Positions 5,100-52,837 of a stretch of DNA of 64,000 nt are shown here, piece by piece; position 1 is the first letter of the stretch, and each line of letters begins with the position of its first letter. Position numbers and translations under genes: made by a program. Below the pieces are notes generated by a model that was not told the origin of the DNA, did no database searches, and was given only the letters and a program-made list of their open reading frames with translations. The stretch spans positions 1 to 64,000 of IMG/VR virus record IMGVR_UViG_3300037258_001099, one strand, 5' to 3'. The stretch comes from a virus.

Positions 5100-5115
5100 A
5101 TCGACTTTTCCTTAA
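5100..5115 (-). promoter_or_regulatory. class II copy of the conserved motif (ATCGACTTTTCCTTAA on +)
   Basis: same core recurs at 6983, 16291, 24083, degenerately at 10347, and in the 27.9-31.9 kb cluster; always upstream of a minus-strand gene. Confidence 0.7.
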
Positions 5116-6980: not shown

Positions 6981-6996
6981 ATCGACTTTTCCTTAC
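6981..6996 (-). promoter_or_regulatory. class II conserved motif (ATCGACTTTTCCTTAC on +)
   Basis: intergenic, upstream of the gene starting at 6889. Confidence 0.6.
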
Positions 6997-14089: not shown

Positions 14090-14197
14090 GCTTTCTAGAA
14101 CGCTTGTTACAGGCGAATCTCATCAGATTGTTATATAATCTCATGATTATTGCATCGTTAGAGTAGTGCTACACAGGACGTGTGGAGGAGAGAGAGT

Positions 14198-16288: not shown

Positions 16289-16304
16289 ATCGACTTTCCC
16301 TTAA
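16289..16304 (-). promoter_or_regulatory. class II conserved motif (ATCGACTTTCCCTTAA on +)
   Basis: one mismatch to the core. Confidence 0.6.
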
Positions 16305-21123: not shown

Positions 21124-21342
21124 TTATTTATTTTCTAGCCGATCGATCTCCAGATAAAGCAAGATCAGAGTATAGAATACACCTTCTCGCTTTTTCAGCT
21201 CAGCAATTGCCTTCTGCTGTTCTTCCTCTGGGAAAGATCGGATTTTTCTGACTGAGCGTGCTATGAGATCTTCAACGTCTTCTCTCGAAGCTTCCACTCC
21301 TGCTCTCCTTCTATCGCATACTCTGTTGGATAGTTGAGCCAT
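21124..21342 (-). CDS. hypothetical protein
   Basis: ORF only; start uncertain. Confidence 0.4.
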   Translation of the reverse strand: MAQLSNRVCDRRRAGVEASREDVEDLIARSVRKIRSFPEEEQQKAIAELKKREGVFYTLILLYLEIDRLENK

Positions 21343-21767
21343 TCGATGGGCTTGCCAAGAGACCTAGCATGCTCTAGCTCAAGAATTGATGAGATCCCCA
21401 GGTAGGGCACACCACCGATAGGTCCGTTGATCATGACAATTCTGTCTGCCATCTCTACTTTGCGCAGGTGGAGCTGGTCAAGCTTGTCTTTATCTGCTGC
21501 TGTGAGCTCACCTGCGAGCATGAGATCAAGATCAGACTTTGTGTCTATGCCAATCGAAAGCACGATATTTCCGGCTATTGTCTCCTTGAGATTGGCAGCA
21601 TGGAATATAGGGCCAAAGCGTGATGAGCCACAAAGCGTGACAATCTCTGGGCGGCTTGCCATCTCTTCTAAAAGCCGGACAAGGAAGGATTTGTCGGTGA
21701 CGGTGAAGCTGAAGTTCTTTGCATAGAGCTTCTCAATTAAGAATTGGATATTTTCTCTTCTACTCAT
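21261..21767 (-). CDS. nucleoside 2-deoxyribosyltransferase-like (DUF4406-like Rossmannoid) protein
   Basis: IVTLCGSSRF...LHLRKVEMADRIVMIN...YLGISSILELEHARSLGKPI. Confidence 0.7.
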   Translation of the reverse strand: MSRRENIQFLIEKLYAKNFSFTVTDKSFLVRLLEEMASRPEIVTLCGSSRFGPIFHAANLKETIAGNIVLSIGIDTKSDLDLMLAGELTAADKDKLDQLHLRKVEMADRIVMINGPIGGVPYLGISSILELEHARSLGKPIEWLNYPTEYAIEGEQEWKLREKTLKIS

Positions 21768-22021
21768 GATTTTCCTTTCTCATTTTCCGGTAATGATTCT
21801 TCGTTACCGGAAAATTGTTCGGGCTCAGGTTCGCACTCAGTAAGTGTATGTTCTCCGTCGAGTCCTCTACCTTCTAGATCAAAGCTACCTTTGTTGGTAT
21901 AAATGCGGAAAGTTGTGACAGTGAGGACGACTACTCTATCTGCCGTCTTCCCGTCTTTGTCACAGCGGATGAGTGTTTCGCCTTTGTGTACTTCTCTCTC
22001 AATCATGATGCCTCCGTCCAT
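21764..22021 (-). CDS. hypothetical protein
   Basis: coupled ORF; contains the palindrome at 21785. Confidence 0.55.
   Translation of the reverse strand: MDGGIMIEREVHKGETLIRCDKDGKTADRVVVLTVTTFRIYTNKGSFDLEGRGLDGEHTLTECEPEPEQFSGNEESLPENEKGKS
21785..21812. repeat. 10-8-10 palindrome TTCCGGTAAT-GATTCTTC-GTTACCGGAA
   Basis: same site at 12766 and 52802. Confidence 0.75.
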
Positions 22022-22194
22022 GTATCTGTTGCTTCATCGTAGTATTCACCGAGAGCCGGAACCTGATCTGCCTCTTGCTCCGGCTCTCGGGTAAGCTCTG
22101 GCTTTGTTGTCGTGGGTAGGACGCTTAGGAGCATTCCTACCACGAGTACAAGAATAGCGCTATAGAGCAAGAGCATTTCGATCATGGACATCAC
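22003..22194 (-). CDS. small TM protein
   Basis: N-terminal hydrophobic helix. Confidence 0.55.
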   Translation of the reverse strand: MMSMIEMLLLYSAILVLVVGMLLSVLPTTTKPELTREPEQEADQVPALGEYYDEATDTWTEAS

Positions 22195-22757
22195 ATCCCC
22201 TTCAGTCTCTCGATGAATACTGCTGCTGGAATATCCTTATCCAGAGTGTTGTATCTCCACCACGCTAAGTGTGTGGCAGGATGTTCAATCCTTTCTCGCG
22301 CATAGTCTGAGGTGGGTTTTGGTAACTCTGGACCTGTGTAGAAGACATGCTTTGATCCATATGCCACGATCCCGAATTGGAGAGCGTGTCCCATCTCTAT
22401 GCAGGTGAGTGCTGCACTGATGGTCCCACACATCTGCATGTCACACTCTTTGATCAGATACTCCCCTACTTGCTTTACTGGCGGCTCTACGTCCCAGCAC
22501 ATGGCTTTGTCAATGTAGAACTGGTGCATGGTAGGAGCATCATAGTATGGTCGGTCTAAACACCCAGAGAATATCTCTGGGTCATGCTCTCGTGCTTTCT
22601 CTTCAGTGAGCTCTTCTAATTCATGCATGCGCTCTGGCTTTACGTCAAGACGCTCAATAGCTCCAGTGCTAAAGTGGACCCATGCCATGGTCGCAAACCC
22701 TGTAGGTATGGCTGCTATCTTAATGTTGCTGTAATTTGGGTCAATATAGTATCTCAC
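22191..22757 (-). CDS. hypothetical protein
   Basis: GGAAGGAG SD; overlapping start and stop. Confidence 0.7.
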   Translation of the reverse strand: MRYYIDPNYSNIKIAAIPTGFATMAWVHFSTGAIERLDVKPERMHELEELTEEKAREHDPEIFSGCLDRPYYDAPTMHQFYIDKAMCWDVEPPVKQVGEYLIKECDMQMCGTISAALTCIEMGHALQFGIVAYGSKHVFYTGPELPKPTSDYARERIEHPATHLAWWRYNTLDKDIPAAVFIERLKGM

Positions 22758-23107
22758 TGTGTCTCCTTCCTTGGTATATAGGTATAGTATTTTTCGTGCT
22801 CGCCTTTATTTTGGACGAAGATGGCATCTTCTGTAAACCGGAGGTAGGTGACATCTGTTTCCATGGCGAAGTTCCCGTGGCCGTAGTCTTCGCCATAATC
22901 ATGAGCAATAATAATGCCTCCGTTCTCATCTATCTCATGCTTCCAAGCCCTGATAGCATCTGGTCTTTGGACTAGACACACATCTTTGGTAAAAGAGAAC
23001 CACTGGACAATATCAAAGCGGGAAGCAAGTCTGGTTCGCAGTGCCTCTGCCACTTCTTCCATGTTCTTCAGGGTGATAAAGCCCTGCCAGTTGTGTGGGT
23101 CGATCAT
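22754..23107 (-). CDS. hypothetical protein
   Basis: coupled ORF. Confidence 0.7.
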   Translation of the reverse strand: MIDPHNWQGFITLKNMEEVAEALRTRLASRFDIVQWFSFTKDVCLVQRPDAIRAWKHEIDENGGIIIAHDYGEDYGHGNFAMETDVTYLRFTEDAIFVQNKGEHEKYYTYIPRKETQ

Positions 23108-23508
23108 TCATATGCCTCCCTTATGCGATCAGCAAGCGGTTCTCGCATAGCTTCAATAGCCACTCTGGCTGCTTTGTAGTGATCCTTTTGCGTATTACCT
23201 AGACGACCTAGTGTGAAGTTTGCAGATCGTAGGTATATGAGTGCATAGTCTATTTCTTGATCAAACTCCTGAAGGAGATCTCGCTCTTCAAGAGGACTAA
23301 TCGGATTATTGTAGCCAATAATCTGCCAGTGCATAATGTCCTCACGATCGAGGAATTTCTCTTGTTTGTTGCTCACCTGCTTTACTTCTATGGTGAGCTT
23401 CTTGCGTTTTGTGTTGGTCTGGATAAACCTATCTCCTTCCTCTAGCGGAAAGGCTTTCTTGATAGTTTCCATATTGGATCTCTTCCATCCAATAATCTCT
23501 ATGATCAT
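23104..23508 (-). CDS. hypothetical protein
   Basis: AGAAAGGAAACAC SD. Confidence 0.7.
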   Translation of the reverse strand: MIIEIIGWKRSNMETIKKAFPLEEGDRFIQTNTKRKKLTIEVKQVSNKQEKFLDREDIMHWQIIGYNNPISPLEERDLLQEFDQEIDYALIYLRSANFTLGRLGNTQKDHYKAARVAIEAMREPLADRIREAYE

Positions 23509-23545
23509 ACGTGTGTTTCCTTTCTGTAAACAACTGTTCTCGGAA

Positions 23546-23827
23546 TTACCAGCAGTCGATGAGATAGGTTCCCTCTGGGATCTCTTCTCGTGCTACCAGC
23601 TCCAGCATAAGCTGTACTGGGCTACAATAGCTGCCTTTCTGAAGGAATGCTGTGACTTGCTGTATCTCCCACTCACCATAGTCTTTTGATTCGATAAAGA
23701 GCATCTGGTGGCTATTTCTCGGCCAGCCTTCCCCAATTTGATAGTCCTTATGAAAGACCTTGCTGATGATATTTTCGAGCTCTGTTACGCCCAAGATGTA
23801 GTAGGTTTTTTTCCGAATATCTCTCAT
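23546..23827 (-). CDS. hypothetical protein
   Basis: AGAAAGGAAAAC SD. Confidence 0.7.
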   Translation of the reverse strand: MRDIRKKTYYILGVTELENIISKVFHKDYQIGEGWPRNSHQMLFIESKDYGEWEIQQVTAFLQKGSYCSPVQLMLELVAREEIPEGTYLIDCW

Positions 23828-24045
23828 GCTGTTTTCCTTTCTTCTGCATCCATATCATCTAAAACAACGTCAATAGTGGGGCATTTCAGCTCCTCGTCTT
23901 CCTGCTCTTCCTCAAGGAGTGCATAAATTGCGCTTACACTAAAGCCTTCGTTTAGTAGGGCCAGGATATATCTTCCCACAATCTCCTCATCCTCTGTTTG
24001 TGTGAGCATGCGATTTGCATAGGCTCTAAGCTCGTCTTCTGTCAT
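23824..24045 (-). CDS. small acidic protein
   Basis: AGAAAGGGAAAC SD; downstream of the motif at 24083. Confidence 0.7.
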   Translation of the reverse strand: MTEDELRAYANRMLTQTEDEEIVGRYILALLNEGFSVSAIYALLEEEQEDEELKCPTIDVVLDDMDAEERKTA

Positions 24046-24080
24046 AGTGTGTTTCCCTTTCTATTACAAATCCTGCCATG

Positions 24081-24096
24081 ATCGACTTTTCCTTAA
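24081..24096 (-). promoter_or_regulatory. class II conserved motif (ATCGACTTTTCCTTAA on +)
   Basis: exact core match. Confidence 0.65.
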
Positions 24097-24271
24097 TCCG
24101 TCTGTGATGAGAATCGGTTCTGGCTCTGGATATTGTATCTTTGGCTGTGTGGCTCTTCCTCTGGAAGATGTGCCCTTATTGGTTTTTTTTAGCATGCGTA
24201 GTGCCGTTCTGTGGATATCTATGCCTGCCCACACTCCTACGAAAAGCAGCCTATTGCAACGCCAATAAGTG

Positions 24272-24718
24272 TTAGCATGATTGTTTTCGCCTTTCTGCTT
24301 CAATATCAGCATAACCGCTTGATTCCTTCCAGAACTTTTCTTTGTGATTCCATTGAAATTCTAATTGCAGATTTGCCCAATCCTCGGGATACTGCTTGTT
24401 TATGCGGTCAAACTCTACAGTGAACTCTTCATGGGAGATTTCTGCTGCATGGTACCTAGCCGCAAGCTCGATCTTTGCTTGCGCGAACTCCGCTGACACA
24501 TTATGCATATCGTAGCTATGAGCTTCTTGCTCTCGTATCCTTGCTTTTACTTGTTCTAGATCAGTAAGGAACTTTCCGTTGAGCTCTTTCATCTGTTGGT
24601 AGTACTCCTCTGAGAAGGGCGCTACCCTTGTGACGATACTTGCTCTTTCTTTGGCATACGTCTTTGAGACGCCATACTCTTCTATGTAGTCTTTTGCTAT
24701 TCTCCATCTTCTAAGCAT
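24272..24718 (-). CDS. hypothetical coiled-coil protein
   Basis: AGGAGG SD. Confidence 0.7.
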   Translation of the reverse strand: MLRRWRIAKDYIEEYGVSKTYAKERASIVTRVAPFSEEYYQQMKELNGKFLTDLEQVKARIREQEAHSYDMHNVSAEFAQAKIELAARYHAAEISHEEFTVEFDRINKQYPEDWANLQLEFQWNHKEKFWKESSGYADIEAERRKQSC

Positions 24719-24720
24719 GG

Positions 24721-24906
24721 TTATTTTCCTCCTTTTACAAGTGCTGCTATCAGCACAGCTTCTGCAAGTAGTGTGAGCCCAAGTGCCGCTGTACTCTCAG
24801 CGCTAGAGTAAGGACTGGTTACCACAACAATAAAGCACAGAACTGCAATGAGCAGCCCTGTGCCGAGAATCTTTACTCTACGCATCAACTTTGTCCTCCA
24901 GCCCAA
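24721..24906 (-). CDS. small two-TM protein
   Basis: hydrophobic ORF in the operon. Confidence 0.55.
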   Translation of the reverse strand: MGWRTKLMRRVKILGTGLLIAVLCFIVVVTSPYSSAESTAALGLTLLAEAVLIAALVKGGK

Positions 24907-25318
24907 GGATCTTGGTGATGGGCTCTATTGCCCACTCTGGAATATTTTTCCAGTCCTTGATGTCTTGTGCTTTCGTTCTTGATGAGTGAGGCCACATGAC
25001 GAGCTTGTCTGCTATTCTTGTTCTTTTGCACGAAGGCTTATCGGTATCGTGAACAGCAAACACTTTCTCCCATACTGACTCTATTGTGTCTTCCCTGTTT
25101 ATCCCAACTGACCCGACAGTGTGGCAGTTTTTGCAGATAAAGACTTGCTTTGGATAGAAGGGGTCGTGCTTTTCGCAGTACTGCCTTCCCTCTTCTGTTT
25201 TTGCAAGCTCTGCCAGCCTTTGTGCGTTAAGGACAATCTCACTCTTTCTTACGCAACCACAGTCCAGAGTATAGAGAACTCTGTCTATGACTACTTCAAC
25301 ATGTTCTACTTTTCTCAT
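24878..25318 (-). CDS. Cys-containing hypothetical protein
   Basis: CGC and CKNC motifs. Confidence 0.65.
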   Translation of the reverse strand: MRKVEHVEVVIDRVLYTLDCGCVRKSEIVLNAQRLAELAKTEEGRQYCEKHDPFYPKQVFICKNCHTVGSVGINREDTIESVWEKVFAVHDTDKPSCKRTRIADKLVMWPHSSRTKAQDIKDWKNIPEWAIEPITKILGLEDKVDA

Positions 25319-25569
25319 AGTCTCTCGGCTCCTTCTTGCTCCCAGGGGTACTTATTGTAGTAAGCCTGCACTCTGGTAGCCTGTATAGCTTTGGCTGCCA
25401 GAGTGAGACTAATTATCCCCATAATAATCCAGCCGTAGATGCTATTTCCCAGATCCCAGATCCAGTGGTATCTTGTGCTCAGGAGCAGCAGCAGGAACAC
25501 TCCTATTGCAATAGCTAGGCAATTCCGTTTGACACGCTTGATCTCTTTGCGCTCCACAGCTCTGTACAT
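25315..25569 (-). CDS. small two-TM protein
   Basis: hydrophobic segments; SD. Confidence 0.65.
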   Translation of the reverse strand: MYRAVERKEIKRVKRNCLAIAIGVFLLLLLSTRYHWIWDLGNSIYGWIIMGIISLTLAAKAIQATRVQAYYNKYPWEQEGAERL

Positions 25570-25800
25570 TTAGTGTTCCCTTTCTTTTATTTGCTCGATA
25601 ACTGCTTTTATCATTTCCCTTTTTTGTTCTTCGCTTGCTAGAATCTTGTGTTTGCGGAGATACTCTTCCACTTTTGACTCTGCCCACTTAGCTTGGTTGG
25701 CAAGATACCTTGCCTCATTCTCCTTGATGGATTGGTTCATCCGTTCTTTACTGGCCTTGTCCTTGTCAATACTTTGTTTGATCTCTTCGTTGGTGTACAT
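25570..25800 (-). CDS. hypothetical protein
   Basis: AGAAAGGA SD. Confidence 0.65.
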   Translation of the reverse strand: MYTNEEIKQSIDKDKASKERMNQSIKENEARYLANQAKWAESKVEEYLRKHKILASEEQKREMIKAVIEQIKEREH

Positions 25801-26307
25801 TTACTTTCCTTTCTAGTGACTGTGCATGTCGATATAACATGCAATAGCAATGCCTGCAAACAGAATAACTGCTAAAATGATGACCCATATGCTATCAGCA
25901 CAGAGAATGTGATACGGTGTGCATATCTCACTTGACATGACTTCTCCTTTCTAGTTAGGCATATTGTCTAGTATGCTTTCAATGGTCGTTTGTATCTCTT
26001 TTGCCTTGTTTAGCATTGTCTTGAAGTTTGTGGTTAATATCTCTGATATAGCGTGCTTACGCTTCGTTCATTGGTCTCACCTCCTTTCATCCTCTCATTA
26101 TAGCACTGACAGGCTATCTTTGCACTATCATTCCACTATCAGTAGTGTGCACACTTTTCTTGTCAGTGCTGCTATGATGGCTCTCGTGATGTGTTACTTG
26201 TCTTCTGTTGGGGATAGGCGCTCTCTTGGAGTAAGAGGGGAAGCGTCTATTTTGAAACAAAAATAGCCGTCAGTATCTCTTTTTGGGAGATACTAGCGGC
26301 TATGCTG

Positions 26308-26607
26308 TTATTCGTATACCTTATTAAGAATGACGAAGAGATCGTCTGTTTGTTTCATTCGAGTCAGCACCCCTTCTATCTTTTCTCGGCAGATAATACG
26401 TTTACCATCTGGGAGTGCATACACTGAGATGTAGATATAGATCATTTCCTGTGTATTCTTCTGGCACTCCCATGTCTGGTGGTAGACCAGATCTCCTGGT
26501 ATCTCTACCGTTGCCATTATTTTATGTATCTCTACCTTGCACCCTGCGTTCTGCAAAAGTGCAAGCTTGCCTTCGTCAACTGCCATTTTAAGCTTGAGTT
26601 TGATCAT
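26308..26607 (-). CDS. hypothetical protein
   Basis: coupled ORF followed by a terminator near 26263-26302. Confidence 0.65.
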   Translation of the reverse strand: MIKLKLKMAVDEGKLALLQNAGCKVEIHKIMATVEIPGDLVYHQTWECQKNTQEMIYIYISVYALPDGKRIICREKIEGVLTRMKQTDDLFVILNKVYE

Positions 26608-26957
26608 TAGAGCCCCCTTTCTGCTTCACAGTCAAACTCATCGTCTATCTCTTGCTCTGCGTCTACAAAACTGTATGGCGCTTGCCGACCTGGAAGAATG
26701 CCATTTTCCTCTGGACTTCTGTAGATACGCAGCCACCATTCCAGATTCTCTGTGCCACGGCTGTCTGCCACTACATTGGAATCGATCTTAAATGGCCGAG
26801 ATGATCCAATAGACTCCATATAGCTGTGTGCTGATTGAGATCCGCTGGAGCCTGACACCAGAATGCTGTTCAGCGGTATGCGTATGGCCTCGTCTTGTTC
26901 AAAGTTTGTGGCGCTCCTCAGATCGATGGATGTTGTGGGATAGTGTGTTGCAATCAT
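26607..26957 (-). CDS. hypothetical protein (start MIATHYP)
   Basis: GAAAGGA SD before the internal ATG. Confidence 0.6.
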   Translation of the reverse strand: MIATHYPTTSIDLRSATNFEQDEAIRIPLNSILVSGSSGSQSAHSYMESIGSSRPFKIDSNVVADSRGTENLEWWLRIYRSPEENGILPGRQAPYSFVDAEQEIDDEFDCEAERGL

Positions 26958-27066
26958 GGGTCTGATCCTTTCATTTGGGCAATAAAAAAACTCGTGAGAC
27001 CTTTTGTGGCGTAGTCTCACGAGTTAAAAAAAAAGAGGAGAGCACCAATTGGCACTCTCCAGGGAA

Positions 27067-27873
27067 CTATTTACTCAACACTGCATAGACATCGGTGATT
27101 TCCTGATCAATCTCGGTGGCCTGTGCTTCCAGTTCGATTGCATCTGCAACCTTCTTGAGCTGAGACATCTCTTTTGGAGAAGATTGATTGATAGCAGGAA
27201 TGTAGACTTTCTTGCTATTAGCCTTGAAGCGCTTTGCAATATCCATTGCTTGCTTTTGACCACGAGCTTCTACAACTAACAGCTTGCTTACACATTCTGC
27301 TCTAGCAACCAGCTCATTTCTGCGCTGGCCGTTATCGATGATCCACTCTGCGCTGTCATGGAACTGACTTATAACACAGATATCACGAGTATTTATATAG
27401 TCTAGGATCTCATCGGTGAGCTCAATACCATCGAGCCCTAAGCTGCATACTACGAGCACACACCCACCAGCAGCGATGTGAGCTCGAACCATTGGCATAT
27501 CTTCTCCGATGAGCCCACAAACCAGCAGATTGTGCGTCCCTTCTGCTGCTAGACTATGTGCCGCTGCCTCACTTGCTGCAATGGCTGATTTGCTTGAATT
27601 ACGAGAAATCGCAACTGCCACAAATGGAAGCTCTGTGAGGATACCCTGATCCCCAATAGTGTGGACTGTGGTATTTCTGAATTTCGCTGTGCCGTACTCA
27701 CGCTTTGCAGGAGCAGTCTCTTCAACCACTTCAGTCTCAACTCTTACTGATGGCCCTGTGCTAATGACTTCATTAACTTTCATCTCGGCTACCTCTTCGG
27801 GTGTTGGAACAAACTCAGGAGTAACAATTTCGACGCCAAGGTCAAGAGCTGTTTGAATCATTTCGTTAGACAT
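27067..27873 (-). CDS. divergent DprA/SMF-like (SLOG) protein with an acidic N-terminal extension
   Basis: HTIGD...VAVAISRNSS...LVCGL..G.D...AHIAAGG...VISQF...QRRNELVA...LLVVEA. Confidence 0.7.
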   Translation of the reverse strand: MSNEMIQTALDLGVEIVTPEFVPTPEEVAEMKVNEVISTGPSVRVETEVVEETAPAKREYGTAKFRNTTVHTIGDQGILTELPFVAVAISRNSSKSAIAASEAAAHSLAAEGTHNLLVCGLIGEDMPMVRAHIAAGGCVLVVCSLGLDGIELTDEILDYINTRDICVISQFHDSAEWIIDNGQRRNELVARAECVSKLLVVEARGQKQAMDIAKRFKANSKKVYIPAINQSSPKEMSQLKKVADAIELEAQATEIDQEITDVYAVLSK

Positions 27874-27938
27874 AGTTTTGGTTTCCTTTCTGAAACACTT
27901 GTTTTATCTGTAAACCCACTTCAGGTTCACAAAAATTG

Positions 27939-27961
27939 GAGCGGAGCCGACTTTTCCTTAA
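27939..27961 (-). promoter_or_regulatory. class I site GA-GC(GGA)GC-CGACTTTTCCTTAA (written on +)
   Basis: one of six copies heading cassettes. Confidence 0.8.
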
Positions 27962-28039
27962 TACTTTCAGGAATAGACAATGCTCAAGAGGTATAAAAGA
28001 ACAAAAAAAAAGGAAGCTTACAAGAGACTTCCCTTTTGT

Positions 28040-28498
28040 TTAGTACTGCTCGTCCCCTGGGTCGATATGGATCTCGACCAGGATATCAAGCTTGCTTAGG
28101 GCGTCGGCCATCATAGGCCCAACAACTGACCATGATAGGTGACCATTGCCACACCCGAGCTTGGTGATTGCTATGGAGGTGATCCCCAAACGCTTGTAGT
28201 CACTTATGATACGCTCAAGGATGTCCTTAATCCAGCCATACATCGAATCCTTGTTGAAGTGATCCTTGGTGGATACATTGAGGATGTACCTGCCATCATT
28301 AAGCTTGTGCCTGCAAATGCGACCAGGCTGCCACTTGCCTGTGCTGCATTGCTCGTAGTACTTAGCAAACATGGCTGGATAACGAGACTTAAACTGCTTG
28401 GCAATGCCAGCTCCCATAATGCCTTTACAATTGACGGTATTTGTGAGTGTTTGGCATTTACTCTCGAATAAGTTGCCTCCGATAACATATCTGATCAT
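28040..28498 (-). CDS. macrodomain protein, DarG-like ADP-ribosylglycohydrolase
   Basis: GNLF...NTVNCKGIMGAGIAKQFK.RYP...LNVSTK...SIAI.KLGCGNG.L.W. Confidence 0.9.
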   Translation of the reverse strand: MIRYVIGGNLFESKCQTLTNTVNCKGIMGAGIAKQFKSRYPAMFAKYYEQCSTGKWQPGRICRHKLNDGRYILNVSTKDHFNKDSMYGWIKDILERIISDYKRLGITSIAITKLGCGNGHLSWSVVGPMMADALSKLDILVEIHIDPGDEQY

Positions 28499-28517
28499 GA
28501 GTTCCTCCTAGAAGATT

Positions 28518-28540
28518 GTGTGAAACCGACTTTTGCTTAA
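28518..28540 (-). promoter_or_regulatory. class I site GT-GT(GAA)AC-CGACTTTTGCTTAA (written on +)
   Basis: repeat copy. Confidence 0.8.
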
Positions 28541-28696
28541 ATCTTGACTGTATTGCTATGCTTAATCCTGGACTACGATCAAGAGTGGAAGAGGTCTTGC
28601 CTATACTCCACTCTTGTCACCCTTAGATATGCATGAGAACTCCTACGACTAAACTTTGGGGAGGCAATGGAGCTTACCTATGCCTCCCTTCACTTT

Positions 28697-29374
28697 TTAA
28701 TCGATTCTACTGCGCTTGATAGCTTCTGTGATTGTTGGGTAGTCCTGCTTTCCCCTGAAGCTATGACAGAAGCCTGATCCTACGTAATCAGTAGCTAGTT
28801 TTTTGAGGCCTGCGTATCGATCAGGATGTGCCTCACAATCGCTCTTGACGGGTATAGGGATATAGATAGGTTTCTTCTGCTGCACTGCATAGCGAGCGGT
28901 AATCATGGTGCCACTATCTCTTCCATCAGGCTTTAGCTCAGCTTGCACAGGAATGACGGCATCTGAGAGGTCTACAATGATCTGATCCCTATTTGTGAAC
29001 CGTTTCTTTGCACGAGCACTGTCATACTCAGGTGTATCGTACTCAGTGCAGAGAAGACCGCCCTTTTTCACAATCTCACGTGCCAGCGATTCATTTTTAG
29101 CAGGATATATTCGATTAATAGGAGTACCCAGTACTGCGATAGTTAGCCCGCCTGCTGCAATGGCGCCTTTGTGAGCTGCTGTGTCAATGCCCTCTGCTAG
29201 GCCTGAGACAATCACAAATCCAGCTTTCACAAACGCGGTAGCTATGGCTGCTGTTATCTGCCTACCACGCTCTGTGCAATTGCGTGATCCTACAATCGCA
29301 ACAGAAGACATGTCGATGATCTCTAGGTCTCCTTCGACAAACATTTCTCTTCCACAGATTATTGCTTTGTCCAT
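28697..29374 (-). CDS. dprA: DprA/SMF-family (SLOG Rossmann) protein lacking the SAM and C-terminal wHTH domains
   Basis: VAIVGSRNCT..G...IVSGLAEGIDTAAHKGA...TIAVLGT...IYPAKN...F..RDQII...SGTMITARYA. Confidence 0.88.
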   Translation of the reverse strand: MDKAIICGREMFVEGDLEIIDMSSVAIVGSRNCTERGRQITAAIATAFVKAGFVIVSGLAEGIDTAAHKGAIAAGGLTIAVLGTPINRIYPAKNESLAREIVKKGGLLCTEYDTPEYDSARAKKRFTNRDQIIVDLSDAVIPVQAELKPDGRDSGTMITARYAVQQKKPIYIPIPVKSDCEAHPDRYAGLKKLATDYVGSGFCHSFRGKQDYPTITEAIKRSRID

Positions 29375-29418
29375 AGATATTGTTCCTTTCTAAATTAAAA
29401 AGCCGACTACACAGATAT

Positions 29419-29441
29419 GAGCGAAGCCGACTTTTCCTTAA
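29419..29441 (-). promoter_or_regulatory. class I site GA-GC(GAA)GC-CGACTTTTCCTTAA (written on +)
   Basis: repeat copy. Confidence 0.8.
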
Positions 29442-29465
29442 TATGTTTGCTACTTGAATAGTCTC

Positions 29466-29681
29466 CTACTCTCCACGTTGTATCTCTGCTTCCCATGGTG
29501 GTAGCGATAGCTCGTTGGCTAAGTATTTTAGCTGATCTAGTGGTAGCTTTAGAATGGCATCTACAATTGGATTAAACTTTTGTCTATTACTTGGGTCGAA
29601 GGTCTCTATTCCAAGGTGCTTGCCTATAAAATAGATTATCTCAAGTGCTGCTCTTACTCGTTGAAAATCTTCATCAATCAT
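29466..29681 (-). CDS. hypothetical protein
   Basis: AGAAAGGGAAACACCC SD before ATG 29681. Confidence 0.65.
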   Translation of the reverse strand: MIDEDFQRVRAALEIIYFIGKHLGIETFDPSNRQKFNPIVDAILKLPLDQLKYLANELSLPPWEAEIQRGE

Positions 29682-29844
29682 GGGTGTTTCCCTTTCTGAT
29701 ATAAACAAACTTTTAGCTCGAAGTAGTGATGGCTATGATACGACTATTTGAGTTGGAATAGGTGACTGAGCTTGTATAGGCAGCTCTCATTCCTAATTTC
29801 TTACACTCAAAAGCCTTCTCCTCACACTCAAATCATCATCGCAC

Positions 29845-30003
29845 TCATTCCTCAATACACAGCTCCACAGCAATCTCTCTCAACTGCCAGTCCTCATAGC
29901 CATCTAGTCTCTCCAGTGCCGCCATAAGCCACTGTGCATAGCCCAATTCCATTACCTCATATCCAAGCAACCTTTCGATCTCTTGCGCTATCAGCTCTGC
30001 CAT
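29845..30003 (-). CDS. small acidic hypothetical protein
   Basis: AGAAAGGAAAC SD before ATG 30003. Confidence 0.6.
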   Translation of the reverse strand: MAELIAQEIERLLGYEVMELGYAQWLMAALERLDGYEDWQLREIAVELCIEE

Positions 30004-30072
30004 GATCTGTTTCCTTTCTGCAAACAACTGTTTCCATAATTAGCAGCACAGATTGCTCCATGCTGCACACTA

Positions 30073-30432
30073 CTAATGGACAATTACCGTGATATCAGGT
30101 CTATATCTGCCAATTACTCGACTTATGAGTTTTCTATGGCAGAACTGACCCTCTCTGCACCAACAGAGTAGTGTGATATCCTCTGCTGGATCGAGCGACT
30201 TTAGCCATGGCCGTACAGCTTCCCAGCGATCAGAGAGCAACTTGAAGTACAATCTCGTGTACTCCTGCTCACTCATCCCCTTGTATCGATAAGCTGTTAC
30301 CATATTCCACTGAGGCACCAGACAGTCAACAGTGGCTGTTACACCATGTCCAACCATATTCTTTACGGCTGTACAATAGCACTGTCCTACGTGGCTCTCA
30401 GTAGCATATACGCTAGCTAGATATACTGACAC
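30073..30432 (-). CDS. DUF488-family protein
   Basis: LVPQW...EYTRLY...ITLLCWC....FCHRKLI. Confidence 0.75.
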   Translation of the reverse strand: MSVYLASVYATESHVGQCYCTAVKNMVGHGVTATVDCLVPQWNMVTAYRYKGMSEQEYTRLYFKLLSDRWEAVRPWLKSLDPAEDITLLCWCREGQFCHRKLISRVIGRYRPDITVIVH

Positions 30433-30472
30433 GATTGATCCTCCTTCTATAGATTAACATTAACACTAACTG

Positions 30473-30495
30473 GTGTGCAACCTACTTTTGCTTAA
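30473..30495 (-). promoter_or_regulatory. class I site GT-GT(GCA)AC-CTACTTTTGCTTAA (written on +)
   Basis: repeat copy with one core mismatch. Confidence 0.75.
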
Positions 30496-30542
30496 TAGGT
30501 TGGGGTTGCAGTGTGTAAGAGCAGCTTGGAGGCGTGTACAAC

Positions 30543-30673
30543 TTGTTTGTACGGTACTGCTAGCCCACCAGTGGCTCGCTATCGCTCGCCGTTTAACGAG
30601 TTGTTTGTACGTAGAGCTCTCACATTGTGCTGGCCCAACGCGCCTTCGCTAACGCTACGGCGTTTAACGAGTT
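30543..30673. repeat. imperfect tandem duplication TTGTTTGTACG...TGCTRGCCCA...TCGCTA.CGCT...CGTTTAACGAGTT
   Basis: two units at about 30543-30602 and 30601-30673 in a non-coding gap. Confidence 0.7.
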
Positions 30674-30942
30674 AGGGCTAGAGTCCGTCCGTGCGAGCCC
30701 GTCTCTCAATCTCACTCTATCTCGCTCGATTCCAAGGCAAACTCCGCGTTTTTTAGCACTTTGCTCTGCAAGTAGGCTGTAGTATGCTACATCACTATGC
30801 AGTATGTAGCATATAGGGCACAGTGAGGGCTGTTTTGCTGATGTACAGTAGATATGTGGGGTGTTTCTCCGTGTTTCTGAGCACTTCATAATGTAGCAAC
30901 ATGAAAATAAGCTGGCACTCCGAAGAGTAACCAGCTTGATTG

Positions 30943-31131
30943 CTAGAACAGTACGATTGTGTGACCAGCATCAGCCATCCTTCGCAGCCAGTCAGTGGTC
31001 TCTTTTGGTAGCATCACAACGTTCCAAAGTTCGTCAGACTCTGCCTCAGTGAGGTTTAGCTGACTTAACTCGAACAATGCAAAGCTGAGATCACTATACT
31101 GGACAAAAGGACTGCTGCTAAGTGTAAACAT
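30943..31131 (-). CDS. hypothetical protein
   Basis: AAGGAG SD; own terminator near 30909-30937. Confidence 0.65.
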   Translation of the reverse strand: MFTLSSSPFVQYSDLSFALFELSQLNLTEAESDELWNVVMLPKETTDWLRRMADAGHTIVLF

Positions 31132-31186
31132 AATAGACTCCTTGTTATATAACTATCACCAGGCAACATACCTGGATCATAGATTT

Positions 31187-31209
31187 GCGTGGAACCGACT
31201 TTTCCTTAA
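31187..31209 (-). promoter_or_regulatory. class I site GC-GT(GGA)AC-CGACTTTTCCTTAA (written on +)
   Basis: repeat copy. Confidence 0.8.
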
Positions 31210-31263
31210 ATCTTTGAGGCATCACAAAAGAAGGCCAGGACAATACATGCCCTAGCCTTGTTG

Positions 31264-31800
31264 CTATACGCTGAATCGTTGTGCTAGTGCTTGTAGCCCT
31301 GGGAGAGAGAAGTACTTAGCCTCAAGCTTCTCTAATACCAGCTTGTACTGTCTGGTGAGTGTTGCACTGTCTTTAGCAGTACCCAGCAACGTTGCGACAT
31401 GTGCACTGATAGTCTCACTTAGCTTCTCCTCAGCACTCAGTTCAGCGACACTGTTTAGATGATCCATCAGCTCATCATCAAGAGCGTACAAGTCGTCCAT
31501 TATGTGAGCTCTCATATGGATGTAGCTTTCTTTGTGGAATGTGACTTCAATAGACTCGATCTCTTTGCTATTGAAGCTCTCCCACACAACAACCACTGTT
31601 ATTTCGACGCAGGTGAGCTTGTCCACTCTCTGATTTAGAATGTTCATGTCTGAGTTGACATCCCAGCCATCTTGCTCGTGATAGCTATGGCCGTCAATGC
31701 CGCTCCAGAAGTTGAGTGCTGGGAGTGCAAGATAGTCTATAAGGACAGCGTAAATACTGTCGTTGTTGGCAGTGAATGATGAAGAGTGAATAGAGAACAT
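31264..31800 (-). CDS. hypothetical protein (start MFSIHSS)
   Basis: GGAGG SD before ATG 31800; terminator near 31231-31259. Confidence 0.7.
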   Translation of the reverse strand: MFSIHSSSFTANNDSIYAVLIDYLALPALNFWSGIDGHSYHEQDGWDVNSDMNILNQRVDKLTCVEITVVVVWESFNSKEIESIEVTFHKESYIHMRAHIMDDLYALDDELMDHLNSVAELSAEEKLSETISAHVATLLGTAKDSATLTRQYKLVLEKLEAKYFSLPGLQALAQRFSV

Positions 31801-31857
31801 GAGTAGCCTCCAAGGGATAGATAAGATGCCAGTCACAGCGACTGACTCATAAGCCTG

Positions 31858-31880
31858 GAGCGAAGCCGACTTTTGCTTAA
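31858..31880 (-). promoter_or_regulatory. class I site GA-GC(GAA)GC-CGACTTTTGCTTAA (written on +)
   Basis: repeat copy. Confidence 0.8.
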
Positions 31881-32140
31881 ACATGAGGGAGAGCACGATG
31901 CTGGGTAGGCATAGAGGATGCTGGTAGCAGGAGAGAGAGCAGGATGATAGGACTGGTGAGCAGCGGAGATGGCAGGATCGACCCCATCTGTATCCTATGA
32001 GTAGTAATTGTGTTTGTTACTTCCCTCCCATAATTTCCACTCCTGCAAAGCACTTTTCACAAAAACACCATAGACCAGCCTCCAGAGCCGCCTTACAGTA
32101 TATATTTTAGCCCTATAAAGCCTCGTGGTAGACTAATCTC

Positions 32141-32431
32141 ATGATATATCTCATTCTTACCGTTCTTATCCCTATCCCATTGGGGATTATTGCGGTTATC
32201 TATGACATCCACCAGAAGAGATGGTTTGATCGCTATCGCTACTTGGAGCATAAGTTAATGGATCTACGCATGGAACTTGATAGGATAGAGCAGGATGTGG
32301 ATGATCCGAAAGGCATTCCCCGTGAAGAACCTGAGACTGACGAATGGGAAATGGATAGTATACTCTGTATTGATCCCTCAATAGAAAAGACAACGAAAAG
32401 CCCCTTCTCATCCCACCTGCAAAGTACATGA
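32141..32431 (+). CDS. single-TM hypothetical protein
   Basis: N-terminal TM helix. Confidence 0.6.
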   Translation: MIYLILTVLIPIPLGIIAVIYDIHQKRWFDRYRYLEHKLMDLRMELDRIEQDVDDPKGIPREEPETDEWEMDSILCIDPSIEKTTKSPFSSHLQST

Positions 32432-32633
32432 GAAGGGGCCTTGCTCTCTACTGCAATAGAGAACGTTTTGTGTCTTGAGATTTAGCGCTCTCAAGACAAA
32501 TCTCTAGAAAAGAGATCGGCATGGAATAGAACAGTGCTGATTATAAATCCAGCTTCTTTGATTGTCAATGCTCTCCCTTTTTGTTACCTAAATATATTTC
32601 CTTCCGCGAAGTAATCTCTGCTAGAATGGCCCT

Positions 32634-32849
32634 ATGGATGAATTAACTCCGAAAGTCTTGGCCCAAATAATCCTTGGAGAGGTACCAGAAGGCACGCCAG
32701 AGACCTGGGAAGAGGTTCGTACTGTCCTGGCGAAAGCAGGACACACAAGTTGTCCTTGTGGCTGCGGATTTTTTCGCTACAACGCTTGGGGCAATGCCAT
32801 GGACAACCAATCCGCAACATTTGATTTCCCTGATAAAATGAGCTCATGA
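32634..32849 (+). CDS. hypothetical protein (CPCGCG)
   Basis: coupled to the LuxR gene. Confidence 0.55.
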   Translation: MDELTPKVLAQIILGEVPEGTPETWEEVRTVLAKAGHTSCPCGCGFFRYNAWGNAMDNQSATFDFPDKMSS

Positions 32850-33148
32850 TCCGAACCAAAAAGCAGCGAGAGAGTGATACACGCAAAATACTGGCACTTG
32901 TAGCCCAAGGGTTGACTGATAAGCAGATTGCAGCCAGGCTTCACTTGCATCGCAAGACCGTATGCAGGTACCTCTCTGCTGTCAGATGCAAAACTGGGAT
33001 TAAGAGTCGCATACTCCTTGGTTTCTATGCCCTCGGCAAGGGTATCGTTTCCCAGGAAGAGATACGAAAAGCAATTCACAGAGAAAGGCTAGCAAGTGGA
33101 AAGCATAGCAGGAAAATGGATACAGGAAGTGATATTAGAGCAGTGTAA
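32846..33148 (+). CDS. stand-alone LuxR-type HTH regulator
   Basis: ILALVAQGLTDKQIAARLHLHRKTV..YLSAVR.KTGIKSR. Confidence 0.85.
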   Translation: MIRTKKQRESDTRKILALVAQGLTDKQIAARLHLHRKTVCRYLSAVRCKTGIKSRILLGFYALGKGIVSQEEIRKAIHRERLASGKHSRKMDTGSDIRAV

Positions 33149-33344
33149 GCCATCCCAGCACCATTTCGATATTGTCACTGTTTCAGCAGGTACAGATTGG
33201 TATGACAAGAAAACACTTCGGATCTGCAAGCAGTGCGGAAGAACAAGTCAGTTCTCCTATGAAGAGGATGGCGCTGTATCATGGAGACCAGTGATTGAAA
33301 AAGATCTACCTCTAGAGCCTACTCATAGTCAAAGTAGTCAATGA
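33096..33344 (+). CDS. small Zn-ribbon hypothetical protein
   Basis: C...HHF...CKQCG. Confidence 0.5.
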   Translation: MESIAGKWIQEVILEQCKPSQHHFDIVTVSAGTDWYDKKTLRICKQCGRTSQFSYEEDGAVSWRPVIEKDLPLEPTHSQSSQ

Positions 33345-33612
33345 TATTCTGTTTTGGGTGAGACTCATCAAGGTCATGGTAAAAATCAATCATTTCCTGC
33401 ATACCCTGAGCATTATTGCCAGACTGGTCAGCCGCAAATGCTTTTCCAAGCTCTACCAGATCATCCCAAGTCTTAGAAATCGTCTTTTGCTCGATATTTC
33501 GTATACTTGCGTAAACAGCATCAAGGCTCATCACAAGCGCATACGCAATAGCAGGTGGCTCTTTGCCTTCTGCTATCAGAATAAGGATAGTGCGTTCTGA
33601 AAAAAGTATCAT
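33319..33612 (-). CDS. stand-alone LuxR-type HTH regulator
   Basis: SERTILILIAEGKEPPAIAYALVMSLDAVYASIRNIEQK. Confidence 0.75.
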   Translation of the reverse strand: MILFSERTILILIAEGKEPPAIAYALVMSLDAVYASIRNIEQKTISKTWDDLVELGKAFAADQSGNNAQGMQEMIDFYHDLDESHPKQNIIDYFDYE

Positions 33613-33639
33613 AGAGCTACTCTACCACAGGAGACCAGG

Positions 33640-34062
33640 ATGGATATATACCGCGCTTACCATAAAGAGCTCGGAATGATTCCAAAAGAGGAGTATTTTA
33701 CCATTGAGGACGCTATTGCTGGTGATCTCGCCTTCTGGGGCTCTCCATCCAAGGATTTTCCTCTAAAAGCTTTCACTTTTATGCGTTCGCTTAACCTGCA
33801 AGACAAAAACAAAACCGAGATTTTCTTTGGGGACATCCTAAAATACGGCTATTTTGCGTGCAATGACCCAAATTTGCCATGGGATCTACCAGAAGTCGTA
33901 AATGAGCTCGATATTACGACACAAATAGATAGAATTGTGGCAAGAGATCATCCAATGGTGCTCCATGCCATCTACCACATGATTTCTAATAATCCAGATG
34001 TGATCGGTGTGGAGATTATTGGGAACGTTCATGAGGACCCTGACCTATTGGAGGTGATATGA
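33640..34062 (+). CDS. YopX-family protein
   Basis: YRAYHK...LQDKNKTEIFFGDIL...EIIGNVHEDPDLLE. Confidence 0.85.
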   Translation: MDIYRAYHKELGMIPKEEYFTIEDAIAGDLAFWGSPSKDFPLKAFTFMRSLNLQDKNKTEIFFGDILKYGYFACNDPNLPWDLPEVVNELDITTQIDRIVARDHPMVLHAIYHMISNNPDVIGVEIIGNVHEDPDLLEVI

Positions 34063-34601
34063 CGGTTGTTGCGGGTCTCGTTGCAGATAATAAAGTTTAT
34101 ATGGGGGCAGATAGTCTAAGTGTGAGCGATGATGGCTCTGCTTGCATTGACAAATCTCCAAAAGTGTTTCGTGTAGGAGACTATCTCTTTGGGTGTGCTG
34201 GCTCCCCTAGACTCAAACAGCTTCTCTACTACGCCTATGTGCCTACAAAGACGACCATGGATGGGGAACATGCTCCAATGTGCTATCTAATAAGCAAATT
34301 TATGCGTGATTTGCAGGATTTCTTTGGCAAACATGGCTTTTTAGAGGAGTTTAAAGAGACAGAAACCCAGATCCTGCTAGGTATAGGTGGCAAGCTCTTT
34401 TGCATCTACAGCGATTTCTATCTCGAAGAGAGCGGCTACGGCTATTATGCAATAGGATGCGCTGCTGGTCTTGCACTCGGATCACTCTATAGTACGGCAG
34501 GGGCACCGATGAGCGCGAAAGATCGGGTACACCTTGCCCTTGAGGCCTCTGAAAAACATAATACACATGTAAGACGACCCTTTATTTTTGAGGAGGTCTA
34601 G
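34059..34601 (+). CDS. HslV/proteasome-beta-like Ntn-hydrolase peptidase
   Basis: N-terminal M-T, MGADS, SPKVF, GCAGS, YAIGC..GLALGSL. Confidence 0.8.
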   Translation: MTVVAGLVADNKVYMGADSLSVSDDGSACIDKSPKVFRVGDYLFGCAGSPRLKQLLYYAYVPTKTTMDGEHAPMCYLISKFMRDLQDFFGKHGFLEEFKETETQILLGIGGKLFCIYSDFYLEESGYGYYAIGCAAGLALGSLYSTAGAPMSAKDRVHLALEASEKHNTHVRRPFIFEEV

Positions 34602-34607
34602 ATAGGC

Positions 34608-34802
34608 ATGGAAAATAGACAGGAAGATCCAAAAGAGAAGGCTATGCGTATTTTAGGGGAGGCGTCAGGCGATTTTGTGAGTAGTATTTTGCTGCTTTGT
34701 CCTGCCTCAAAGGAGCTTGTCGAGGCCATGCATCACGTACGTCAGGCCGTTTTATTTGCTAGGAAGGCAATAGAGGACGCAATGAATGCCCCAGATGAGT
34801 AA
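34608..34802 (+). CDS. Acb2/Tad1-like helical hairpin protein (divergent)
   Basis: I...CPASKEL.EA...V.QAVLFA.KAI resembles the CP.SRE.SLA.TKLEEAVMWANAAI pattern. Confidence 0.5.
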   Translation: MENRQEDPKEKAMRILGEASGDFVSSILLLCPASKELVEAMHHVRQAVLFARKAIEDAMNAPDE

Positions 34803-34896
34803 GGGTCCTTACGTAAGGAAGCAGCCTCGTGCTCGCAATAAAGATGGAACCTGGCGTAATAAGCGAGCGGACACTGGAGTAAAACGAGAGAAGTAT

Positions 34897-35154
34897 ATGA
34901 CGAAGAATCCGCGAGATACACAATTTGTGCCCGAGGCCGAAGTCTTACTTCAGCAGCTCGGGAATGCGGGGTTTGTCTTTGAAGGTGCAGACGATGCTCA
35001 TAGAGAAGAGCACCTTGAACAGGCACGGCTCCTTATCGCACGCTGGGCCTATGATTTCGCCTGCCACGTCTGGGATGAGACAATTGGTGGCGGCAATCCT
35101 GGCTTTGCCATAGGAAGCATTCAGAGTATGACTGGAGGGAATAATCATGATTAG
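34897..35154 (+). CDS. hypothetical protein (start uncertain)
   Basis: ORF 34786..35154; the internal ATG has a GAGAAG SD. Confidence 0.5.
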   Translation: MTKNPRDTQFVPEAEVLLQQLGNAGFVFEGADDAHREEHLEQARLLIARWAYDFACHVWDETIGGGNPGFAIGSIQSMTGGNNHD

Positions 35155-52793: not shown

Positions 52794-52837
52794 AGAACAA
52801 TTTCCGGTAATCACTTTTCATTACCGGAAATTGTTCT
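52794..52837. repeat. perfect 18-8-18 palindrome AGAACAATTTCCGGTAAT-CACTTTTC-ATTACCGGAAATTGTTCT
   Basis: intergenic between scaffold and MCP; core shared with 12766 and 21785. Confidence 0.85.

Follow-up and report, generated by a model that had tools for sequence, protein, structure and literature searches.

Composite units of a terminator and a promoter, the PeSLs of T4-like phages, have been described as standing between small variable genes and mediating the exchange of modules (PMC4122927). They are the closest known design to the elements dealt with here, a family of short oriented sequences (boxes) in the IMG/VR virus record IMGVR_UViG_3300037258_001099, six of which head an array of small gene cassettes at 27.9-31.9 kb. 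The window analysed is the first 64 kb of this record, which has 136,990 bp and is about 91% complete. As with PeSLs, small repeated units of terminator and promoter are found in a plastic region, an arrangement thought to allow modules to be swapped by recombination. The two differ in that the promoter of a PeSL is of the host-type early kind, whereas the boxes lack a sigma-70 consensus and are private to the phage, and in that only some boxes are joined to a terminator (a stem-loop terminator lies directly upstream of 2/6 boxes in the window, and of 5/7 and 4/7, plus one recognised by eye, on contigs G001 and L013 of two related phages), single copies also occurring outside the array.

Four further systems come near to the boxes in one feature or another. 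The promoters of phage N4, three of them at one genome end, are described as hairpins whose stem measures 5-7 bp and whose loop has 3 nt, and the enzyme that reads them is a T7-like polymerase carried in the virion (PMC4496689). Transcription from them begins at a constant distance, the centre of the loop being at -11. N4 promoters and boxes alike have a GNA triloop on the template strand with a closing G-C pair, three copies here having the same heptamers; the boxes differ in a stem of 2 bp, in their number (7 copies and another 10 without hairpin), in a conserved block upstream and in that no polymerase was found in the genome. The L5-type sites of Cluster A mycobacteriophages, bound in L5 by gp71 and in general by a monomeric repressor with two domains, an HTH and a stoperator domain, are described as asymmetric, oriented words of 13 bp, present in many copies in short gaps and located throughout the genome (PMC9283540). 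The boxes are likewise asymmetric words in many oriented copies in short gaps, varying between relatives, and differ in being two-block elements of 33-45 nt, in being absent from the structural operon and in that some head divergent units. In phage P23-45, according to the account in PMC10770324, pre-early promoters are read by a virion RNA polymerase that is fused to the tape measure and has a DFDGD signature. The likeness, as far as that account goes, lies in a giant enzyme-bearing tape measure and in a private motif, highly conserved, ahead of early genes; the tape measure of the phage studied here differs in having helicase and SLT domains without DxDxD. The MotA-dependent middle promoters of T4, an example of activator-box promoters, have an asymmetric box in place of the -35 element, occur in tandem with sigma-70 promoters of the early class and are used by the host polymerase with small early phage proteins, features that the boxes would have in common with them. 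The boxes differ in lacking a consistent TAnnnT element at the right distance, and relatives of MotA or AsiA are not known in this phage.

It is established that the boxes form a family of two classes (B and A), that they are co-oriented, that they stand after terminators or in divergent gaps, that the leaders behind class B boxes are promoterless, that the family is private to the phage and that related phages have arrays of their own. Because the boxes are oriented, private and at the head of units, because the leaders lack promoters and because the design is kept in relatives, the simplest account is a phage-specific class of promoters. The host RNA polymerase, together with a phage factor, would recognise them in duplex form, a reading drawn from sequence in which belief and doubt are evenly balanced.

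The six sites of the array, at positions 27939, 28518, 29419, 30473, 31187 and 31858, lie on the + strand and the adjoining genes on the - strand, as in the sequence-only reading that drew attention to them. Read on the gene strand, each is TTAAGSAAAAGTCGG followed by YTNCRC. Their common 15-mer, CCKACTTTTSCTTAA, is matched exactly at 6/6 sites. If up to 2 mismatches are allowed, the window has 11 occurrences where 0.45 would be expected, a number that 0/100 shuffles reach, and the six-site set is real and far above chance. The distances given below run from the low end of the 23-mer to the start codon. The conserved block extends downstream past the 23 bp to about position 32 (a weak ATYTNTG).

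27939-27961, - strand: class B box 1, TTAAGGAAAAGTCGG-CTCCGCTC on the gene strand, E-value 6.9e-11; 7-mer GCGGAGC; 65 nt to the start codon; heads the DprA-like gene of 268 amino acids (aa).
28518-28540, - strand: class B box 2; 7-mer GTGAAAC; 19 nt to the ATG, with the Shine-Dalgarno sequence AGGAGG inside the gap; heads the Macro-domain gene.
29419-29441, - strand: class B box 3; 7-mer GCGAAGC; 44 nt to the start codon; heads the DprA/SLOG gene.
30473-30495, - strand: class B box 4, with the core variant GTAGG; 7-mer GTGCAAC; 40 nt to the start codon; heads the DUF488-N3a gene and two small open reading frames (ORFs).
31187-31209, - strand: class B box 5, 21 nt past a terminator stem; 7-mer GTGGAAC; 55 nt to the start codon; heads a 62-aa ORF.
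31858-31880, - strand: class B box 6, whose TAA doubles as the stop codon of a 58-aa ORF lying upstream; 7-mer GCGAAGC; 57 nt to the start codon; heads a 178-aa ORF.

A scan of the whole genome and a profile search over its 136,990 bp showed that the six sites, sound in themselves, are not a closed set: the family has 17 boxes, 7 of class B and 10 of class A. Class B (TTAAGSAAAAGTCGG-YTNCRC) has exactly 7 sites, with E-values of at most 7e-9. The seventh, at genome position 73829 (+), lies 51-81 nt before the gene of the tape-measure protein, which has 4588 aa and bears UvrD-type helicase and SLT domains. Class A (TTAAGGAAAAGTCGAT) has 10 sites with E-values of 0.003-0.9, at 5115, 6996, 16304, 24096, 102746, 111625, 117493, 123301, 125082 and 133486; it has the core TTAAGGAAAAGTCG in common with class B and lacks the hairpin. 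Below class A the profile search found two weak look-alikes inside ORFs, then noise. The class A members in the window and a look-alike are as follows.

5100-5115, - strand: class A box, TTAAGGAAAAGTCGAT, after a hairpin and 47 nt before an ATG.
6981-6996, - strand: class A box, GTAAGG variant, 12 nt past the stop codon of the D5 primase-helicase gene.
16289-16304, - strand: class A box, GGGAAAGT variant.
24081-24096, - strand: class A box that overlaps the last part of the preceding ORF; the following ATG is 51 nt away.
13303-13318, + strand: look-alike inside an ORF, E-value 0.24-0.33, not counted as a member.

All 17 boxes are oriented toward the next downstream gene on their own strand, and none was found by the scan in the structural block at 34-73 kb or at 88-100 kb. 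The genes behind class A boxes encode SSB, a TnpB transposase and small ORFs of no assigned function. Two class A boxes, 102746 and 125082, lie in divergent intergenic regions, out of reach of any upstream transcript. We propose that both classes have a common upstream recognition block and differ in the part that lies near the start.

Outside this genome the class B pattern has 0 matches in viral_contigs, and the class A 15-mer has 37 single matches there, none on a related contig, as expected of chance single hits. The idea of a regulatory word taken from the host was dropped, as 3 Ktedonobacteria genomes gave 4 matches to the box and 7 to the reversed control, hence no enrichment. The box is thus private to the phage, which implies a phage factor.

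In the array the boxes alternate with genes and terminators.

31264-31800, - strand: cassette gene, 178 aa, without family match.
31231-31259, - strand: intrinsic terminator after the 178-aa ORF, a 12-bp stem followed by CTTTTGTG.
30943-31131, - strand: cassette gene, 62 aa, without family match.
30909-30937, - strand: terminator-like hairpin and ATTTTC after the 62-aa ORF.
30073-30432, - strand: cassette gene, 119 aa, DUF488-N3a, with small ORFs behind it at 29845-30027 and 29466-29708.
28697-29374, - strand: cassette gene, 225 aa, DprA / SLOG cluster 4.
28040-28498, - strand: cassette gene, 152 aa, Macro domain.
28003-28032, - strand: hairpin and a run of 9 T after the Macro gene.
27067-27873, - strand: cassette gene, 268 aa, with a weak DprA-type match below the Pfam cut-off.
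27037-27060, - strand: intrinsic terminator after the 268-aa gene.

Upstream of the first cassette, three small ORFs lie behind a sigma-70 promoter at 32568, and box 31880 overlaps the stop codon of the third. From there the order is the 178-aa ORF, box 31209, the 62-aa ORF, box 30495, the DUF488-N3a gene with its two small ORFs, box 29441, the DprA/SLOG gene, box 28540, the Macro gene, box 27961, the DprA-like gene and the terminator at 27060-27037. The view that most cassettes end in a terminator of their own was borne out for 4 array genes, which are followed by a hairpin and a T-run, and fell short at the boxes, since only 2/6 have such a terminator within 60 nt upstream. These are box 31209, where a terminator had been noticed shortly before the site and lies at 21 nt, and box 27961, where the distance is 42 nt. 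Site 29441 is 24 nt past a stop codon with no terminator between, and two hairpins without T-runs lie between the DprA/SLOG gene and box 28540. Neither the 178-aa protein of the first cassette nor the small early ORFs gave any family or Atlas match. The cassette cargo is ADP-ribose- and nucleotide-themed and probably acts against host defence. About 410 nt at 30496-30908, between the 62-aa cassette and box 30495, hold no ORF; a 13-nt word and a 'gtttgtacg' word each occur there twice, Rfam gives no match, and the segment could be a decayed cassette or a small RNA.

The sigma-70 promoter ahead of the array is as follows.

32540-32568, - strand: perfect sigma-70 consensus promoter, TTGACA-17-TATAAT, pointing into the array.

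This is probably an immediate-early promoter. Over 23000-35000 a scan gave 17 promoter-like sites where 19.2 would be expected, in agreement with the claim that no sigma-70 consensus accompanies the boxes of the array: between the class B boxes and their Shine-Dalgarno sequences there is no usable sigma-70-like site, the second hexamer of the sole exception overlapping the start codon. Elsewhere in the same genome, perfect sigma-70 promoters are present. Four boxes of class A are followed, at a distance of 25-75 nt, by a strong sigma-70 promoter (102721, scoring 12/12; 125127, 11/12; 123228, 10/12; and, for 111625, TGgTATAAT), a layout expected of tandem promoters.

Relatives of the phage provided a comparison. 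Blastn of 27000-33000 against deposited phages gave no match, the capsid protein is less than 30% identical to that of any deposited phage, and the terminase as a single query found no relative in viral_contigs; a search with a portal alignment found one viral contig (G001), 13 short soil metagenome contigs and no genome contig. Long contigs of 129, 134, 140 and 109 kb bear portal homologues. The boxes are not a new kind of element, and the lineage is one without a close deposited relative. The nearest relatives have portals 59-67% identical and no DNA similarity, and the contigs of the structural region bear no box. G001 (portal 67% identical; L010 has the same matches and was treated as the same sequence) carries 7 co-oriented boxes, aAAGA-GAAGGACGACG, at 21310-26084, of which 5/7 lie 23-46 nt past strong terminators. 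Two of its terminator and box units are near-identical over about 90 nt and are repeated as one unit; its 14-mer occurs, among the matches listed, in more than one copy only in G001 itself, and one of its cassettes has a DprA/SLOG homologue. Nearly identical terminator hairpins stand before two different cassettes at 22031-22070 and 23264-23297 of G001 (2031-2070 and 3264-3297 of L026). L013 (portal 59%) carries 7 boxes of the form GGACGrAAAGGGGCAAAGCAGG-N10/11-TCTCAT, 4/7 of them behind terminators by scan and a fifth by eye. No sigma-70-like site was found on the array strand of L013, and none that is convincing on that of G001; in both, the boxes are confined to the array.

Macro, DUF488-N3a and DprA/SLOG genes are common to the arrays in differing order, Macro preceding the DUF488-N3a homologue in L013 and following it in this phage, and the other ORFs are unrelated. 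The three lineage-specific boxes keep an AAGGA/AAAGG core and are otherwise different. The relatives thus keep the design of terminator, box, leader and gene, each with a box of its own. A further contig, L019 (portal 38%), has four co-oriented copies of ACTACCAAAGGAA-AGA at 248, 1607, 3651 and 4079 (+), with an A/C-rich run before and hairpins after; this other word, which contains AAAGGAA, precedes terminators, so L019 was not counted as an array. A search for relatives by Macro alignment gave only two unrelated jumbo-phage contigs of 22% GC.

Taken as promoters or as their main recognition element, the boxes would each head a small transcription unit; in the array such a unit is made up of the box, a short leader that includes a Shine-Dalgarno sequence, between one and three small genes and, as a rule, a terminator. 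We infer that transcription would start at the boxes, and likewise which enzyme would read them and in what order: the host RNA polymerase, redirected by a phage protein, would read the box as double-stranded DNA, the 32568 sigma-70 promoter would fire first and the boxes would be switched on afterwards. A small LuxR/GerE-type protein encoded beside the array may be the redirecting protein. Two such proteins with a helix-turn-helix (HTH) are found there.

32846-33148, + strand: 100-aa stand-alone LuxR/GerE-type (sigma region 4-like) HTH protein, matching phrog_3282 'sigma factor' with an E-value of 1.7e-8.
33319-33612, - strand: second small stand-alone LuxR/GerE-type HTH protein, of 97 aa, in a divergent control region beside the array.

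The 100-aa protein has only two homologues, and its gene overlaps an antisense ORF of 100 aa; neither protein has relatives on the partial contigs of G001 or L013. It is by its position only that the 100-aa protein is a candidate for the factor that binds the boxes. Matches in the genome to sigma region 4 resolve to a LuxR/GerE-type protein, a resolvase and a weak HTH. As for the sequence-only reading, which had proposed non-sigma-70 promoters recognised by their structure and read by a phage factor, the position at unit heads and the privacy of the boxes agree with it, and the part of it that concerns recognition through a hairpin is not supported.

Several results weigh against promoters of this kind, to which the oriented, dispersed and asymmetric nature of the word and its variation between relatives, discussed below with the first alternative, are to be added. 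The genome gave no match to the Sigma70_r2, ECF or beta/beta' families, and no cognate sigma factor, activator or RNA polymerase was found in it. The start point cannot be placed consistently. The two-block layout is AGGAAA-AGTCGG-N11-aTyTnTG in this phage and GGGCAA-AGCAGG-N11-TCTCAT in L013, with equal spacing, while the downstream block is moderately conserved in this phage and weak in G001; taken as a -10 element, it would make the Macro transcript start inside or after its own Shine-Dalgarno sequence. For promoters of an early or middle class, a class B box ahead of the tape-measure gene, which is late, would be unusual. Only 2/6 window boxes being directly behind a terminator, read-through from the 32568 promoter could also feed the array. 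The box core AAGGAAAA is the same as in AGAAAGGAAAAC, an extended ribosome-binding word with 14 copies that is among the commonest 11-mers genome-wide (e.g. window 3281, 5725, 16002, 18130 and 23831), and box 133486 is positioned as the ribosome-binding site of a 68-codon ORF, so a role at the RNA level is possible. The inconsistent start, the two terminators for six boxes and a core that is a ribosome-binding word are among the reasons why the phage-specific promoters are given no better than an even standing.

The main rival, which is unlikely, is that the boxes are binding sites of a DNA-binding regulator of the phage, e.g. an immunity repressor that silences a plasmid-like prophage in the manner of stoperators. 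The word is asymmetric and its 17 copies are oriented with transcription and lie in short intergenic gaps or over stop codons, and related phages have different versions of it, just as stoperators vary with the immunity group, traits that also tell against promoters; an actin-like ParM-type protein and a resolvase give the phage a temperate or plasmid-like look, and the two small LuxR/GerE-type HTH proteins lie beside the array. At least two boxes, 102746 and 125082, however, head divergent units, where there is nothing to stop, and lie upstream of sigma-70 promoters, not over or after them. Unlike L5-type sites, none lies in the structural block at 34-73 kb and those of both relatives are array-confined. 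A promoter would still be required for the cassettes past strong terminators, where nothing but the box is conserved; moreover, the conserved stretch of 33-45 nt in two blocks exceeds a 13-mer operator. Small LuxR/GerE-type HTH proteins were the only regulators seen, no search having been aimed at an L5 gp71-like repressor.

Polypurine, Shine-Dalgarno-like 5' stabilisers are known in Bacillus (STAB-SD, phage SP82). A similar role for the box is improbable; it would be an RNA 5'-leader element whose purine core binds the 30S subunit or a phage protein and which acts as stabiliser, ribosome loader or processing mark in a read-through transcript from 32568. The commonest ribosome-binding word of the phage, AAGGAAAA, lies in the box, the AAGGA/AAAGG core recurs in all three lineage-specific boxes, an ATG follows boxes 133486 and 117493 at ribosome-binding distance, and the small number of window sites directly behind a terminator would suit such a transcript. 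Against this, conservation exceeds the need of an anti-Shine-Dalgarno pairing (GTCGG and YTNCRC are invariant or nearly so), most copies have the start codon at the wrong distance, and no transcript at all would cover the boxes that lie upstream of sigma-70 promoters in divergent gaps. Known RNA families gave no match either: Rfam over the whole genome returned nothing at gathering score, ribozymes included, and at a permissive threshold a sole sbrA-like match (E-value 0.042) on the terminator at 27030-27074.

Much less probable still is that a template-strand GYGNARC mini-hairpin is read in single-stranded form by a phage enzyme, as in N4, perhaps one delivered with the helicase-bearing tape measure. 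The 7-mers, the GNA loop and the switch of the second pair between C-G and T-A were all found as the sequence-only reading gave them. Loop and both proposed pairs hold in 7/7 class B copies, the second pair being T-A in 4 and C-G in 3 (3/3 among the six window sites), and 11/500 column shuffles did as well over the 7 class B copies. GCGGAGC and GCGAAGC, the exact GCGNAGC form of 3/7 copies, are named in a review as N4 promoter and mini-hairpin sequences (PMC13037366). A class B box does precede the gene of the 4588-aa tape measure with its UvrD-type helicase domains, and the tape measure of Thermus phage P23-45 is described as able to carry a virion RNA polymerase with a promoter motif of its own (PMC10770324).

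The switch is complementary in every copy and is not independent covariation, since the variable pair is a single change that divides two subfamilies (GAGCGNAGC vs G[T/C]GTGNAAC); the unpaired column 14 divides along the same line (A vs T/C), and shared descent therefore explains the covariation as well as pairing does. The stem has only 2 bp, against 5-7 bp in N4, and cannot be extended, columns 14/22 and 13/23 not pairing. The other 4 copies are GTGNAAC, and because both G-C pairs of the GCGNAGC mini-hairpin are essential, as the same review states (PMC13037366), only 3/7 are true mini-hairpins. The ten class A copies lack the hairpin (5/20 cells pair; 55.9% of cells over all 17 sites), and the boxes of related phages have other 7-mers without GNA loops. 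Standard DNA folding gave no consistent or common hairpin (z-scores of -2.0 to +0.8), its parameters not modelling the special stability of mini-hairpins. N4 differs also in the placing of the conserved block, which is upstream of the hairpin here. Recognition through the GNA turn thus found no backing, and the mini-hairpin is probably not a working part of the box.

The enzyme for such a reading was sought in the rest of the genome, as had been suggested, and neither a virion RNA polymerase nor a sigma factor was found. The T7-type polymerase family PF00940 gave no match, a weak blank, as its control matched in 0/14 control genomes. The tape measure had no polymerase match among solved structures or RNA polymerase families, and the DxDxD motif, which occurs 7 times in 217 ORFs, is never in the tape measure and never polymerase-like. 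A fuller version of the idea is very improbable: class B boxes would become single-stranded after the two helicase motors of the injected tape measure unwind the entering DNA, the GYGNARC turn of the template strand would fold next to the conserved block, and a polymerase or priming activity would start early transcription at this turn. The tape measure's first 2,100 or so residues, which carry no annotation, might house such an activity, as might one of two family-less proteins of 653 and 707 aa. If true, this would be a new virion-delivered transcription system, like that of N4 or P23-45 in its working and unrelated to either.

That the boxes are site-specific recombination sites (integron-like or HUH-type) through which cassettes are inserted and excised, put forward by the sequence-only reading as single-stranded DNA sites, is highly doubtful: the boxes bound the cassettes, the cassette order differs in relatives (Macro and DUF488 are reversed in L013) and a small serine resolvase is encoded at genome 128000-128563 (+), but this is the sole recombinase, neither a tyrosine recombinase (PF00589) nor a Y1 HUH enzyme (PF01797) was matched in the genome although the controls were, the box lacks inverted-repeat symmetry, copies of class A are scattered singly among replication genes, and homologous exchange between repeated promoter and terminator units explains the shuffling equally, as described for PeSLs (PMC4122927). 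The single DNA run gave two 18-base matches from one unrelated contig and no junctions, and so has no bearing on cassette rearrangement.

Two other kinds of promoter were considered and rejected. One on the opposite strand (a MotA-box look-alike TTTTSCTTAA with a -10-like ATAGAC) would run antisense to every neighbouring gene, and for sigma-28, sigma-54, sigma-H, ECF and Bacteroidetes-type promoters there were partial matches only.

Should the boxes be phage-specific promoters, they would make up a private transcription class in which the recognition word changed between related phages while the design of the unit stayed constant, which points to a phage specificity factor co-evolving with its site. 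They would also provide a simple rule by which metagenomes could be searched for this lineage's early gene sets, which probably act against defence. The parallel with PeSLs, in a distant lineage, would support portable promoter-terminator units as a general route for the trade of accessory genes among phages.

The hosts are likely Ktedonobacteria (Chloroflexota), to judge from a transposase sequence. Two TnpB/IS605-type genes are present (genome 101330-102556, - strand, and window 39890-41215, + strand), and the closest homologues of the first, 57-64% identical at 56 loci, all belong to Ktedonobacter, Ktedonobacteraceae and other Chloroflexota, so that the host is likely to be found there; the predicted promoter of this TnpB gene is the perfect sigma-70 one at 102721. 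Genome 68318-69508 (-) encodes a partition protein of actin-like (ALP_N) type, and at genome 125964-127310 (+) a GmrSD_N restriction-type gene stands behind an HTH_17 gene. The partition protein, the resolvase and the GmrSD_N gene are signs of a plasmid-like prophage with a defence gene of its own.

Other features of the genome include a histidine kinase (HisKA + HATPase_c) at window 14180-15292 (+) and the large subunit of a ribonucleotide reductase, of 1036 aa, at genome 91787-94897 (+), shortly past the tape-measure and tail genes. Long perfect palindromes on ATTTCCGGTAAT/ATTACCGGAAAT occur at window 52800-52837 and 21784 and at genome 79859-79896, 120833-120870 and 124915, one of them just before the capsid gene. 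A tandem word of AGTGCCTCCAG type lies at window 7075-7480, inside the 3' part of the D5 primase-helicase gene.

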